A stretch of 40,763 bases of DNA from an uncultured Thermus sp. (GTDB taxonomy: Bacteria; Deinococcota; Deinococci; Deinococcales; Thermaceae), in the NCBI GenBank assembly GCA_947085095.1, contig CAMTVD010000034.1:1-40763 (forward strand), in the 5' to 3' direction. The position numbers and the translations under genes are program-made. Below the pieces are notes generated by a model. The model was not told the DNA's origin. It did not search any database and saw only the letters and a list, made by a program, of their open reading frames with translations. Positions 15,184-18,881 of this stretch are shown here, in pieces. The number at the start of each line of letters is the position of its first letter. Position 1 is the first letter of the stretch.

Positions 15184-16632
15184 GTGCGCGTGTTCAGCCC
15201 TGAGGCCATGCGGGAAGCGGACGAGAAGGCGGCGGCCCTGGGCTACCCCAGCCTCCTCCTCATGGAGTGGGCGGGGATGAAGGCGGCCCGGGCCTACCGG
15301 AAGCTCTTCGGCGAGCGCCCAGCCCTGGTCCTGGCGGGCAAAGGAAACAACGGCGGGGACGGCCTGGTCCTGGCCCGGCACCTCCTCCTGGAGGGGGTGA
15401 GGGTGCGGGTCTACGCCGCCCAAGGCCAGACGGGGGATGCCCTCCTCGCCCGGAACGCCCTCGTGGCTCACGGGGTGGCCATCCACCCCCTCGAGGAGGC
15501 CGCCTTCGCCGAGGGCGAAGTGGTGGTGGATGCCCTCTTCGGCACCGGACTGAAGGGACCCCTGGAGGGCTTTTACGCCGGGCTCGTGGACCGGGTGAAC
15601 GCTTCCTCCCTCCCCGTCTTGGCCCTGGACCTCCCCTCGGGCCTCCCCTACAGTCCCCACATCCGGGCCACGGCCACCGTGGCCTTCGCCGCCCTCAAGA
15701 CCCCCCACCTCCTAGAGCGGGAGGCCTGCGGAAGCCTTTACCTGGCGGAAATCGGCCTCCCCAAGGCCCTCCTAGAGCGGGAGGACCTCCCCGAGGTGGC
15801 CACCCCGGAGGCCCTGAGGCCCCTCCTCCCCAGGCGCCCCCTCACCGCCCACAAGGGGAGCGTGGGCCGGGTGGGGGTTTTGGGAGGGTTTCGCGGGGAT
15901 GGCCTCCGCTACGCCGGGGCACCGGTCCTGGCCGCCCTGGGGGCCTACCGCATGGGGGCCGGCCTCGTCCACCTCGTGGTCCCCGAGGGAACGCCCCTGG
16001 AACCCCTCGAGGCCGTCTTCCACCCCGTCCCCGCCCCCAGCCTTCCCCCCATGCGGGTGGAGGCTCTGGCGGTGGGCATGGGGGGAGGCTCCTGGGGGCC
16101 CCTATGGGCCATGCGGGCCCTCGAGGCGGGCCTCCCCACGGTCCTGGACGCGGATGCCCTCCATCCGGAGGTGGTGGCCGCCTACCGCCGGGCTGGGGTG
16201 AAGGCCGTCCTCACCCCCCACGCCGGGGAGGCGGGAAGGCTTCTGGGAAGGCCGCCCGAGGAGGTGAGCAGGGACCCCCTGGAGGCCGCCCGAACCCTGG
16301 CCCGGGAAACGGGGCTCACCGTGGTCCTAAAAGGGAACCCCACGGTGGTGGCGGAAGGCGGGCGGCTTTCCCTGAACCCCACGGGAAACCCCGCCCTGGC
16401 CACGGGGGGGACGGGGGACGTGCTCTCGGGGGCCATCGCCGCCCTGCTGGCCGCCGGGCTCCCCCCCTTTGAGGCCGCCCGGCTTGGGGTCTATCTCCAC
16501 GGCCTGGCCGGGGACCTCCTGGCCGAGGAGAAGGGGCTGGGCCTCCTGGCCCGGGAGGTGGCAGAGGCCCTACCCCAGGCAAGAAAGTTCCTCCAGGAGG
16601 GCCAGATTCCCCCCTCCTTTTTCCTGCGGTAA
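15184..16632 (+). CDS. nnr: Bifunctional NAD(P)H-hydrate epimerase/dehydratase
   Basis: YjeF N domain (LMEWAG, GKGNNGGDG, DALFGTG, DLPSG) and carbohydrate-kinase domain (HKG, LDADAL, TPHAGEA, LATGGTGDVLSG). Confidence 0.95.
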   Translation: MRVFSPEAMREADEKAAALGYPSLLLMEWAGMKAARAYRKLFGERPALVLAGKGNNGGDGLVLARHLLLEGVRVRVYAAQGQTGDALLARNALVAHGVAIHPLEEAAFAEGEVVVDALFGTGLKGPLEGFYAGLVDRVNASSLPVLALDLPSGLPYSPHIRATATVAFAALKTPHLLEREACGSLYLAEIGLPKALLEREDLPEVATPEALRPLLPRRPLTAHKGSVGRVGVLGGFRGDGLRYAGAPVLAALGAYRMGAGLVHLVVPEGTPLEPLEAVFHPVPAPSLPPMRVEALAVGMGGGSWGPLWAMRALEAGLPTVLDADALHPEVVAAYRRAGVKAVLTPHAGEAGRLLGRPPEEVSRDPLEAARTLARETGLTVVLKGNPTVVAEGGRLSLNPTGNPALATGGTGDVLSGAIAALLAAGLPPFEAARLGVYLHGLAGDLLAEEKGLGLLAREVAEALPQARKFLQEGQIPPSFFLR

Positions 16633-16679: not shown

Positions 16680-17075
16680 TCATAAACCGAGATGGGCTCC
16701 TTGCCCCCCTGGCCCCTGGCGCATCCCAGGCCGGCGTACCGGCCTCAGAAGGAGGAAGCCCAACAGAACCCCCACAAAGAAGGGCTCCTTAGCCAGGGAG
16801 TCCAAGCGATGGGTCAAGGTCCCAGGAAAAACAAAGTCCAAAGCAAGGTAGAAAAGGACTATGGCAGGAAGAGAAAAGGCCCAGACCTTGAGCAGGTTAA
16901 AGGCCACACCGCCATCCCAGAAGAAGTAGAAGGCAAGTACGGACCCCAAGCCCAAAAGGAGCGGGACCCCGCTCCAGATGCCCTGTCGCTCCAGGAAGGA
17001 GCCAAGGATCACAGATGCCACAAAGATACCAAGCCAGAAAAGCCTTTTCGCAAGCTTTCCATCAAACTGGAGCAT
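16680..17075 (-). CDS. Hypothetical ~4-TM membrane protein (candidate immunity protein 2)
   Basis: ATG 17075 after SD AGGGGGG; 131 aa with four hydrophobic stretches; lower-GC codon usage. Confidence 0.65.
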   Translation of the reverse strand: MLQFDGKLAKRLFWLGIFVASVILGSFLERQGIWSGVPLLLGLGSVLAFYFFWDGGVAFNLLKVWAFSLPAIVLFYLALDFVFPGTLTHRLDSLAKEPFFVGVLLGFLLLRPVRRPGMRQGPGGQGAHLGL

Positions 17076-17089
17076 TTTGCCATCCCCCC

Positions 17090-17245
17090 TTACCGGCATT
17101 GTTGCTCGCACACCTAACGGCACTCATTATAGACGACAACGCTGCAAGCAGGTTGCCAAAGAGGAGGAGCGTAAGTGCAAACAAGGTGCTGGACAGCAAG
17201 GCATACAAGGTAGCAAAGGATAGGACCGATTAGGGTGGGTACCAC
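17090..17245 (-). pseudogene. Unannotated Cys-rich peptide with internal amber stop (orphan toxin-like cassette)
   Basis: Manual translation: VVPTLIGPILCYLVCLAVQHLVCTYAPPLWQPACSVVVYNECR*VCEQQCR*; TAG at 17114-17116, TAA at 17090-17092 abutting the next SD. Confidence 0.55.
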
Positions 17246-17276
17246 CTACACCACCCCCTTTGAAGGTAGCTTTCTA

Positions 17277-17543
17277 TCAGCGCTGGGACTGAAAATAGGC
17301 GGCCCAGATGATTCCGAGAAGAGCGCTGGCATAAGGTAGGCCTATGCGCCCATAGGCAAACCAGAGGGCCAAAAGGAGGGCAAACACCACGAAAACGTCC
17401 CCAGTTTCAAGCCTCCCATTACGAAAATAGCTATCAAAAACGGACAACCATAGCTTAAATTGCAGAACTATCAAGGAAGAGTAAAAGGCGGTATCTATCA
17501 AAGTCACAAGAACCCTGTTCAGCGAACGCAATACGTTTGGCAT
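17277..17543 (-). CDS. Hypothetical small ~3-TM membrane protein (candidate immunity protein 1)
   Basis: ATG 17543 after SD GGAGG (17551-17555), overlapping the 3' end of the upstream Cys-rich gene; 88 aa, hydrophobic. Confidence 0.7.
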   Translation of the reverse strand: MPNVLRSLNRVLVTLIDTAFYSSLIVLQFKLWLSVFDSYFRNGRLETGDVFVVFALLLALWFAYGRIGLPYASALLGIIWAAYFQSQR

Positions 17544-17917
17544 CTTTGCTCCTCCCTTGGGGTGCAAACTTGCTGCCAGTCATAGCCAGTACACACAAAC
17601 GCCGTTGCTGCGCAAACCGCCCTTCCCCTGGGATCTACGGTCCAGTAAACACATGCTGCAGCAAAACTTGCGCAAACCCAGCGCCACACGCAATCGTTAA
17701 CCGTTATAGTCTCACACCTCGTGAAACAATTATAACTCCCGCACACCGCCGAGCCGCCATTTCCTGGGTCTAAGCACTGATTGTCCAGAGTCTTCACCAT
17801 CTCGTCGTCTAGTAGGAGACACGAGCGTCCCTCCCGGGGAGGGGATACCTCCTGGCCTACGGCTAGTGGCAAAGCCAAAAACACAACCATAAGAACTCCC
17901 AGGATGGTCAGCTTCAT
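17519..17917 (-). CDS. Secreted 13-cysteine protein, candidate disulfide-ladder bacteriocin/toxin precursor
   Basis: Sec-type signal peptide (MKLTILGVLMVVFLALPLAVG|Q), SD GGAGGT, own promoter; 13 Cys with near-palindromic spacing. Confidence 0.75.
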   Translation of the reverse strand: MKLTILGVLMVVFLALPLAVGQEVSPPREGRSCLLLDDEMVKTLDNQCLDPGNGGSAVCGSYNCFTRCETITVNDCVWRWVCASFAAACVYWTVDPRGRAVCAATAFVCTGYDWQQVCTPREEQRCQTYCVR

Positions 17918-17935
17918 TGTACCACCTCCACCCCT

Positions 17936-17964
17936 AAGATAGGGCTTCTTCTTCTTCTTGTCAA
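17936..17964 (-). promoter_or_regulatory. sigma70 promoter TTGACA-N17-TATCTT driving the Cys-rich islet; spacer contains a trinucleotide repeat
   Basis: -35 at 17964-17959, -10 at 17941-17936, exact 17-nt spacer; plus-strand (CTT)5 at 17945-17959. Confidence 0.75.
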
Positions 17965-18002
17965 GACCCCAGGGAAAGTCCTGGTATGCTGGGACAGGAC
18001 TT

Positions 18003-18881
18003 ATGGAGCCCCTTCCCCGCCTCTACGTCCCCGCCACCCTGGCCAACCTGGGCTCGGGCTTTGACGCCTTGGGGGTGGCCCTGGACCTCTACCTCGAGGT
18101 GGAGGCCGCCCCCGCCCCGGAGGACACCTTTCTTTACGAAGGAGAGGGCCACGTGGAGGGGACGGACAACCTCATCCACGAGGGGTACCGGGCCGGGATG
18201 CGGGCCCTCGGGCTAAAGCCCCCACCCCTAAGGGTCCAGGCCTTCAACCCCATCCCCCTGGCCCGGGGGATGGGGAGCTCCTCGGCCGCCCTGGTGGCGG
18301 GGGTGGCCCTGGCAGACCGCCTTTCCGGGGGAAGGCTCGGGCGGGACGGCGTCTTCCGGGTGGCGGCCAGGCTGGAGGGCCACCCCGACAACGTGGCCCC
18401 CGCAGTCTTTGGGGGCTTCGTGGCCGCCCTGAGCGCCCCCCCCCTGGCCATCCCCCTGCCGAGGCCCGAAGGCCTCCGCTTCGTCCTGGCCATCCCCCCC
18501 TACGAGGTGCCCACCCCCCTGGCCCGGGAGGCTTTGCCGGAGAGGGTACCCCTAAGGGACGCCGTCTACAACCTGGCCCGGAGCGCCCTCTGGCCCGCGG
18601 CCCTCTGCTCGGGGAAGCTGGAGGCCCTAAGGGAGGCCTGCCGCGACCGCCTCCACCAGCCCCACCGGGCCCACCTGATGCCCGGGGTCCTGGAAACCCT
18701 AGAGGGGGCCCTGGAGGCCGGGGCCCTGGCCGCCTTCGTGGGGGGAGCGGGGCCCGCGGTGGCCGCTTTGACCCAGGAGGGGGAGGAGGCCCCGGTCATC
18801 GCCGCCCTGGAGGCCTACCGGGGAGAGGGGCGTATCCTGGTCTTGGGACTTGGGGAGGGATACTGGTGGAAGGAAACCTAA
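18003..18881 (+). CDS. thrB: Homoserine kinase
   Basis: VPATLANLGSGFDALG, IPLARGMGSSSA (GHMP), EGHPDNVAPA, DRLHQPHR, GAGP. Confidence 0.95.
   Translation: MEPLPRLYVPATLANLGSGFDALGVALDLYLEVEAAPAPEDTFLYEGEGHVEGTDNLIHEGYRAGMRALGLKPPPLRVQAFNPIPLARGMGSSSAALVAGVALADRLSGGRLGRDGVFRVAARLEGHPDNVAPAVFGGFVAALSAPPLAIPLPRPEGLRFVLAIPPYEVPTPLAREALPERVPLRDAVYNLARSALWPAALCSGKLEALREACRDRLHQPHRAHLMPGVLETLEGALEAGALAAFVGGAGPAVAALTQEGEEAPVIAALEAYRGEGRILVLGLGEGYWWKET

Follow-up and report, generated by a model that had tools for sequence, protein, structure and literature searches.

Between an nnr-like and a thrB-like gene of an uncultured Thermus sp. lies a minus-strand block of four open reading frames (ORFs), which we call A, B, C, and D. 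We analyzed it within contig CAMTVD010000034.1 of assembly GCA_947085095.1 (the 40,763 nucleotides of this stretch are the window, to which plain positions below refer), part of a 2.08-Mb genome assembly, G000. The block has a GC content of 0.53, whereas the genome averages 0.676 (standard deviation 0.028); values that low occur in only 14 of 4068 genome windows. The third-codon-position GC of the block is 0.51-0.66 versus 0.89-0.90 in the flanks. A preliminary description of this DNA had noted such an AT-richer islet between nnr and thrB and had seen in it a toxin-immunity layout. On the strength of the sequence comparisons that follow, we read the block as an array of polymorphic bacteriocin-immunity modules driven by a phase-variable promoter, with a probability of roughly two in three.

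Gene A (17519-17917, minus strand, as are all array features) encodes a 132-aa precursor with 13 cysteines and a hydrophobic N-terminus, preceded by the ribosome-binding sequence GGAGGT (17924-17929). Its apparent Sec-type signal (approximately residues 1-21), deduced from hydropathy and an invariant Q22, is followed by a pro region, a CLDPG junction (residues 48-52), and a ladder of ten cysteines at residues 64-130 (17528-17728). Gene B (17277-17543) encodes an 88-aa membrane protein, the cognate partner and putative immunity protein of the A1 tip. Its first 25 nt lie within gene A, so that the stretch 17519-17543 encodes both the end of A (its last eight codons) and the beginning of B. Element C (17090-17245) is a remnant of a C-clan ladder tip, without leader or CLDPG junction and with seven of eight ladder cysteines, and gene D (16680-17075), which we take as an orphan putative immunity gene, encodes a D-clan membrane protein of four helices, 131 aa long from its ATG. 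The preliminary description had listed four ORFs; A, B, and D stand as given, but C is not one open frame here, since an in-frame TAG at 17116-17114 shortens it to 43 aa and leaves its last seven residues behind the stop. Because contigs of runs X5 and X7, from the same species, read CAG in place of this TAG, and loci L077 and L078 encode a full 51-aa C, the span 17245-17090 corresponds to the intact allele. The 14 nt before C (17239-17252) match the ribosome-binding region of A (17919-17932) at 13 of 14 positions; this G-rich stretch also resembles Gly-linker codons and is a possible microhomology for leader deletion.

All full precursors (116-147 aa) share the hydrophobic N-terminus, the pro region, a CL-D/G-P/H-G junction, and then a Gly-rich linker. 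Three tip clans (A, C, and E), with 8-11 mirror-spaced cysteines, are joined to one leader type at CLDPG; A and C profiles align over residues 1-58 only, and their mature parts do not align. Cysteine spacing is 4-8-6-7-(11 or 13)-7-9-8-4 in the A clan and 4-4-8-(9 or 11)-8-4-4 in the C clan, while the E-clan tip has ten cysteines in a less symmetric arrangement. A 141-aa singleton, P0015, combines the junction motif with an A-type ladder at 29% identity. In gene A, the mirror-spaced cysteines 64/130, 68/126, 76/118, 82/109, and 89/102, with position sums of 194, 194, 194, 191, and 191, would pair as the rungs of a predicted long beta-hairpin, and permutation of the spacing gives p = 0.0095 for A1 and 0.029 for C1. 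AlphaFold2 (AF2), run with a 12-row alignment, models A as a beta-hairpin with strands 63-94 and 100-131 at a predicted local distance difference test score (pLDDT) of 72-95 (66.7 overall; other models 54-57), and the C-clan protein P0013 as a helical hairpin at pLDDT ~75. The mirror-spaced even cysteine set, the export signal, and an available oxidase, in the form of DsbA- and DsbB-like genes elsewhere in G000, are the features of a disulfide-ladder peptide with the connectivity predicted above. Coding constraint is evident: the A1 tip has a dN/dS of 0.07-0.15 and B1 one of 0.26-0.49, and same-type tips give 0.07-0.15 in eight of nine computable pairs, the ninth giving 0.79.

Relatives outside the genus bear on the chemistry of the ladder. 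The A profile has two matches in G156 (E 5e-14 and 6e-6), a genome from a different family of the order. The two loci, L091 and L092, run in the order LuxR-type helix-turn-helix (HTH) gene, secreted double thioredoxin, ladder precursor, and small membrane genes; the array copies span L091:2900-6920 and L092:2900-6710. In L091 a TGA stands in both precursors, and the later modules of the locus are preceded by a repeated 101-nt piece from the 3' end of the thioredoxin gene. Relatives of the double thioredoxin occur in 10 of 364 genomes of the phylum and in 0 of 31 Thermus genomes, and its named close relatives belong to Deinococcus species. A ladder peptide lies beside the secreted double thioredoxin in nine of the ten Deinococcota genomes having one, and a signal-bearing Cys-rich peptide directly behind it in eight of nine further loci (L113 being the exception); under the filter used, no peptide follows the thioredoxin at the G158 locus. 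An FtsX permease and an ATP-binding cassette (ABC) ATPase come next in three thioredoxin loci, with weak, below-cut-off matches to TIGR01654 and TIGR03608. Clusters of thioredoxin, CxxxC ladder peptide, FtsX, and ABC genes span L110:2773-5618, L111:2517-5305, and L114:3820-6470 (peptide relatives P0079-P0086). The peptides of L110 and L111 share the C-clan cysteine spacing, and the C profile independently matches a G064 peptide at E 7e-4. Sequence itself links only the G156 and G064 peptides to the Thermus family; the others are tied to it by context and cysteine pattern. A signal-bearing protein of 463-464 aa with no family match follows the ladder module in two genomes, at L092:5317-6708 and L106:4234-5622, and could be a processing or delivery factor.

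The linked secreted thioredoxin, together with the DsbA/DsbB-like genes, favors disulfides over thioether or metal chemistry. A peptide that binds metal, or is modified to thioethers by a radical S-adenosylmethionine (radical-SAM) enzyme, would fit the CxxxC repeats, and for the relative at L114 there is a weak match to TIGR04117, a family of CxxxC targets of radical-SAM enzymes (E 0.013; 15.5 bits, with the cut-off at 50). However, the slot contains no radical-SAM gene, the precursors bear signal peptides, which sets them apart from radical-SAM thioether peptides (sacti- and ranthipeptides), their cysteine sets are even and mirror-symmetric, and metal storage would not require type-matched partners. 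With the thioredoxin of the relatives added, this chemistry is scarcely tenable.

The membrane proteins follow the tips by type. Behind an A tip comes a B-clan protein of 86-91 aa, whereas the partner of a C or E tip is a D-clan or F protein with 118-150 aa and three or four helices. B and D profiles gave no alignment with each other, and F resembles D by eye only. The 25-nt A/B overlap is fixed in nine of nine intact A-clan modules, and an intact, type-matched membrane gene lies directly behind each of 21 intact precursors (11 in Genome Taxonomy Database (GTDB) genomes, 10 in metagenome loci). We compared 15 distinct modules in 105 pairs. Leaders at least 90% identical carry tips less than 60% identical in seven pairs, and tips at least 80% identical sit on leaders less than 60% identical in four; leaders of 98% identity bear tips of 32-33%, and a tip of 88-89% identity stands on leaders of 42-50%. 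By contrast, in none of the 105 pairs do tips resemble each other while partners differ, or partners resemble each other while tips differ, and Mantel r is 0.52 for tip and partner, 0.31 for leader and tip, and 0.38 for leader and partner. The preliminary description had named, as support to be sought across Thermus, a shared signal/pro region whose Cys-rich C-termini vary and are each paired with a membrane gene of their own, and the comparison returned just this; rather than being invariant across the genus, slot contents vary and tips and partners covary. A complex prediction for A tip and B scored 0.00, which counts neither way.

Covariation and mosaicism, as well as the transfer described below, would also fit a non-lethal system of self/non-self recognition or signaling, in which the peptide is a tag or pheromone, the membrane protein a type-specific receptor, and the orphans read other types. 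Near-neutral tips suit such a system, as do the LuxR-type HTH genes that precede L091 and L092 and its harmlessness in promoter states other than the 17-bp spacer. Yet the B and D proteins, at 86-131 aa, are nearly all membrane helices with no signal-output domain; none of the 21 intact peptides lacks its partner, a pairing that signaling does not need; and the partners fall into at least two unrelated clans, as immunity predicts. We therefore consider recognition or signaling unlikely, though not negligible.

Peptides and membrane genes also differ in how they decay. In the GTDB genomes, 11 of 30 peptide loci are intact versus 31 of 39 membrane genes, and 20 of these 31 intact membrane genes lack an intact peptide; the contrast gives a Fisher p of 4.5e-4, which is overstated because kin are not independent. 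Intactness was tallied by hand, with two remnants added by eye and G021, cut by a contig end, left out. Most orphan tips are truncated or interrupted, and the membrane genes outlast their decaying peptides and pile up behind the head gene. Of the orphan tip-plus-immunity modules proposed earlier, the membrane genes are retained; the tips downstream are for the most part decaying remnants and not a clean reservoir. Partner dN/dS is mostly 0.2-0.5.

A promoter ahead of the array had been proposed before, and we recover one of predicted sigma-70 type at 17936-17964 (minus strand), with -35 TTGACA at 17964-17959, a 17-bp spacer, and -10 TATCTT at 17941-17936, at 10 of 12 consensus matches. It is laid out as TTGACA-(AAG)n-ccc-TATCTT; here an (AAG)5 tract (17945-17959) occupies the spacer and is a candidate slipped-strand ON/OFF switch. 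Both hexamers are kept at every tract length seen. Since n = 5 yields the 17-bp spacer that fits the sigma-70 consensus, we take it as the probable ON state. In the G000 assembly, AAG tracts of five units occur once, in this promoter, those of four units twice, and those of three units 62 times. We counted 44 promoters, with lengths read from assembled contigs (L060 counted once; the metagenome pattern required n of at least 3). In 20 GTDB-genome promoters n is 2 (one), 3 (four), 4 (five), 5 (four), 6 (three), 8 (one), or 9 (two); in 24 metagenome loci it is 3 (seven), 4 (thirteen), 6 (three), or 8 (one), and 5 in none. Within this species n ranges from 3 to 6, near-clonal samples included: contigs of X2 and X3 have n = 6 and are otherwise letter-identical to the window where covered, X5 has n = 4, X7 shows two lengths, n = 4 at depth 9.8 and n = 3 at depth 2.9 on a single low-depth contig, and the same precursor is preceded by n = 6 in L077 and n = 4 in L078. 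As X2 is possibly the source sample and X3 comes from the same study, their n = 6 reflects either near-clonal variation or an assembly choice and is not independent. The contigs of these two near-clonal runs break within gene B (X2 at window 17321-17350, X3 at 17323-17778), which may reflect a second cassette variant in the population, although gaps by themselves prove nothing. A 9/12 promoter-like site inside B is at chance level and, by eye, not conserved in G030.

In repeat-mediated phase-variable promoters, the tract between -35 and -10 differs in length among members of one species or clone; the (AAG)n spacer shows such variation and is a candidate phase-variation switch of the array. Repeats between -10 and -35 alter sigma docking (PMC4081817), and the array repeat lies in just that position. 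The AAG tract is the same unit as the GAA repeats of vlhA, but those act from farther upstream, ~40 nt before the start site, and not from the spacer (PMC6258824). The cited phase-variable cases are host-associated surface antigens, whereas here the switch would govern a candidate antagonism locus in a free-living thermophile.

Repeat-driven phase variation typically governs surface proteins (PMC9147433, PMC4081817, PMC6258824), which raises the alternative of a phase-variable surface or periplasmic structure, be it an adhesin, a phage decoy, or an exclusion factor, with a membrane protein that anchors, folds, or exports it, or that blocks entry of phage or DNA. A long stapled hairpin could polymerize, and the majority of genomes look switched off. 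However, an anchor or chaperone would be useless alone, at odds with the 20 intact membrane genes that stand without an intact peptide, and we found no PADLOC or PHROGs match for eight cassette proteins and no phage or plasmid match for A. We regard a surface structure as quite unlikely.

The slot itself is bounded by the nnr-like gene (15184-16632, plus strand), its downstream homology arm, and the thrB-like gene (18003-18881, plus strand, ATG start), its upstream arm, both named after the preliminary description. A candidate extended -10 of thrB, TGGTATGCT (17982-17990, plus strand), lies between thrB and the array, and a related motif occurs at every examined thrB-side slot end, empty or filled. 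Peptide or membrane-gene matches are present in 17 of 32 Thermus genomes (G000 and 31 others), either in the nnr-thrB slot or on short contigs of uncertain place in fragmented assemblies (G020:C17, G027:C6). In 13 of the 32, the nnr and thrB matches lie ~40-150 bp apart, indicating an empty or remnant slot, and by eye two near-empty slots retain remnants, a promoter in G004 and a gene end in G011; the G001 and G028 assemblies break at the slot. One genome of a sister genus, G033, has a cassette; its thrB shows an apparent internal duplication of ~53 residues (G033:C39:35725-36750), possibly an assembly artefact. The promoter pattern fetched 24 further metagenome loci, several of them near-duplicates. 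In large protein sets, separate profile and word searches returned 9, 9, 16, and 18 relatives, all unnamed or hypothetical; homologous membrane proteins are annotated as hypothetical in Thermus species, an assignment that puts the window in this genus, and a D2-cluster member is annotated in T. thermophilus (BDG21782.1). The B-clan profile found no match outside Thermus, and the C-clan profile only G033 and G064. Weak A3 matches in 11 genomes of non-Thermus type (E 3e-5 to 1e-3, frames of 300+ aa) were set aside as generic membrane matches. A match in G058 had no cassette at its locus.

A C2+D2 module is 99.3-100% identical across five genomes, one of them of another genus, whose nnr ends are 82.5-90.3% identical, which indicates that modules move between species at the nnr-thrB slot. 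In G024 (L029:6890-7200) and G013 (L030), a fused piece of nnr 3' end and thrB 5' start lies between two complete cassettes, which have separate (AAG)n promoters of unequal length; such a piece is expected from integration through the flanks, and uptake was presumably by natural transformation. Insertion sequences also lie within arrays: a Mutator-type element at L069:1533-2692 (Pfam, above cut-off), a DDE-like one at L027:7100-7960 in G020 (below cut-off), and a piece too short to call at L048:1-120 in G028. The many broken copies, insertion sequences, remnants, and empty slots, and spacers mostly other than 17 bp, would suit a selfish addiction cassette that harms cells losing the pair, or decaying, near-neutral cargo spread by transformation via the flanks. 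We think this very unlikely: nearly all same-type tip pairs show the purifying selection given above, three tip clans are maintained on one leader, and frequent clean loss speaks against strong addiction.

Searches for known relatives were negative, in line with the earlier impression that none of the four ORFs belongs to a recognized family: no homologue of known function was found. Cassette proteins gave nothing above cut-off in Pfam, NCBIfam, PADLOC, or PHROGs. The ESM Atlas had no usable match for A, and for the D-clan protein P0054 only leads below 0.9. Foldseek gave no significant match (best E 0.38 and TM at most 0.22 in a pore-stem comparison), and we did not take the long pore stems among its matches as evidence; VIA reached a best Z of 2.7 for A, and of 6.5 for the hairpin of the C clan, whose arrangement is a common one. 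A metagenome scan seeded by the A1 alignment, for which a Gly-rich pattern was chosen, found nothing. Our literature search returned no published description of the locus, though subscription papers and supplements, which lay outside it, could hold one. The peptide and membrane-protein families are unclassified, and the candidate promoter switch and thioredoxin-linked family are new beyond the preliminary description.

The organization of the array is nonetheless familiar. Polymorphic toxin loci have toxin-then-immunity order, tip replacement, and strings of left-over immunity genes (PMC3482391), and because its own order, tip replacement, and left-over partner strings match those described in PMC3482391 and PMC4287609, the array reads as such a layout. 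Its N-terminal trafficking part is constant and its C-terminal domains are interchangeable; a cognate gene lies directly downstream and covaries with the tip, and there are orphan tip cassettes with strings of orphan putative immunity genes. No toxin domain or immunity family was recognizable in Pfam, NCBIfam, PADLOC, or PHROGs, although unrecognized does not mean non-toxic. As in CDI and Rhs systems, the tip is replaced on a constant 5' body and brings its cognate partner along, and immunity genes are left over in strings; the array differs in being peptide-sized, without repeats, stalk, or catalytic domain, and in exchanging leaders too (PMC3482391). Whole cassettes here also appear to be replaced or stacked via the flanking core genes, unlike in CDI/Rhs. 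The Neisseria MafB/MafI system is closer: it shares a Sec signal in a diderm, a conserved N-terminal part ahead of a C-terminus that varies, a toxin-then-immunity order, further tip cassettes downstream both with and without a start codon, and identical partners for identical tips (PMC4287609). For the outer-membrane step of MafB, vesicles have been proposed (PMC4287609). Yet we found no DUF1020/MafB Pfam match and no mafA in the slot; the array precursor is 116-147 aa, its tips are non-enzymatic Cys ladders, its partners are integral membrane proteins, and its repeat lies in the promoter spacer. By analogy, the array seems to function as a peptide-sized version of a MafB-type polymorphic toxin locus, yet by the criteria compared here it belongs to none of the MafB, halocin C8, ABP, and radical-SAM peptide families.

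Peptide bacteriocins offer further parallels. The mature part of halocin C8 is Cys-rich. As in the array, its precursor is secreted and the C-terminal peptide cleaved off, with regulator and ABC genes near some loci (TIGR04449; 10.64898/2026.07.27.741052). Halocin C8 is, however, Tat-exported with an N-terminal fused immunity domain, whereas the array partner is a separate downstream gene (10.64898/2026.07.27.741052). Up to E 0.5-1, none of the A, C, or E tips matched TIGR04449 in NCBIfam. ABP/S8-linked polymorphic toxins are Sec-exported, diffusible, polymorphic, and processed, as we propose for the array, but they belong to Gram-positives, need a co-secreted protease, and have enzymatic tips and cytoplasmic immunity (PMC13460014).

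Disulfide bacteriocins such as sublancin (with BdbA/B), lactococcin 972, and laterosporulin have linked thiol-disulfide oxidoreductases or Sec export, and they pair a secreted peptide stabilized by disulfides with an immunity gene for a small membrane protein, as proposed here. The Deinococcota relatives, with a dedicated thioredoxin and an FtsX/ABC pair, resemble them in this respect. The array differs in showing no sequence match to them, in its ladder of four to five rungs, in being polymorphic, and in its diderm thermophile host.

Under the bacteriocin-immunity reading, the precursor would be exported through Sec and its mirror-spaced cysteines oxidized by DsbA/DsbB (in the Deinococcota relatives, by the linked double thioredoxin) to a heat-stable ladder, with the pro region cleaved near CLDPG. 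The hairpin would then reach neighboring Thermus cells, perhaps in vesicles as proposed for MafB (PMC4287609), and harm their envelope or inner membrane, while the cognate membrane protein would neutralize its own peptide type-specifically. Slippage of (AAG)n to n = 5, with its 17-bp spacer, would drive strong expression in a fraction of the cells, with little or none at other values of n.

Several observations weigh against this scheme. Killing and protection are themselves deduced from sequence, no family or fold match links the tips to a known toxin, and the Thermus slot contains no outer-membrane exporter. Tip/partner covariation also follows from adjacency, and for A and B from overlapping frames; the leader, equally adjacent to the tip, is uncoupled from it more often than the partner. 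Three pairs of orphan membrane genes look unconstrained (dN/dS 0.77, 0.98, and 1.63, the last being D of the window versus L078). The AF2 hairpin differs by clan, beta for A and helical for C. Tip net charge is -2 to +3, with one at +7, and thus near neutral, unlike cationic membrane-lytic peptides, suggesting receptor- or assembly-dependent action over charge-driven lysis. Finally, a 17-bp spacer is found in just 4 of the 44 assembled promoters and an internal promoter in 0 of 17 precursor genes. Were the other lengths fully off, the putative immunity would be silenced too; the model needs leaky transcription, and immunity in these states must rest on such leak or on something unseen.

A broader picture is possible, but on balance we hold it doubtful. 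In it, Sec-exported cystine-ladder weapons would extend across Deinococcota, the A-clan hairpin, with ~32 residues per strand, would assemble into a long pore in rivals, the trinucleotide switch would make producers a minority, and natural transformation would swap weapon-antidote pairs across species, amounting to phase-variable kin discrimination and killing.

T. thermophilus is naturally transformable, and genomes with an empty slot exist as possible targets. The array adds peptide and membrane-protein families that are unclassified and all annotated as hypothetical, presumably heat-stable ladder scaffolds with natural partners, and a candidate promoter switch one step from ON in a free-living thermophile. 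It also gives a specific candidate mechanism of competition among Thermus strains in hot-spring mats.

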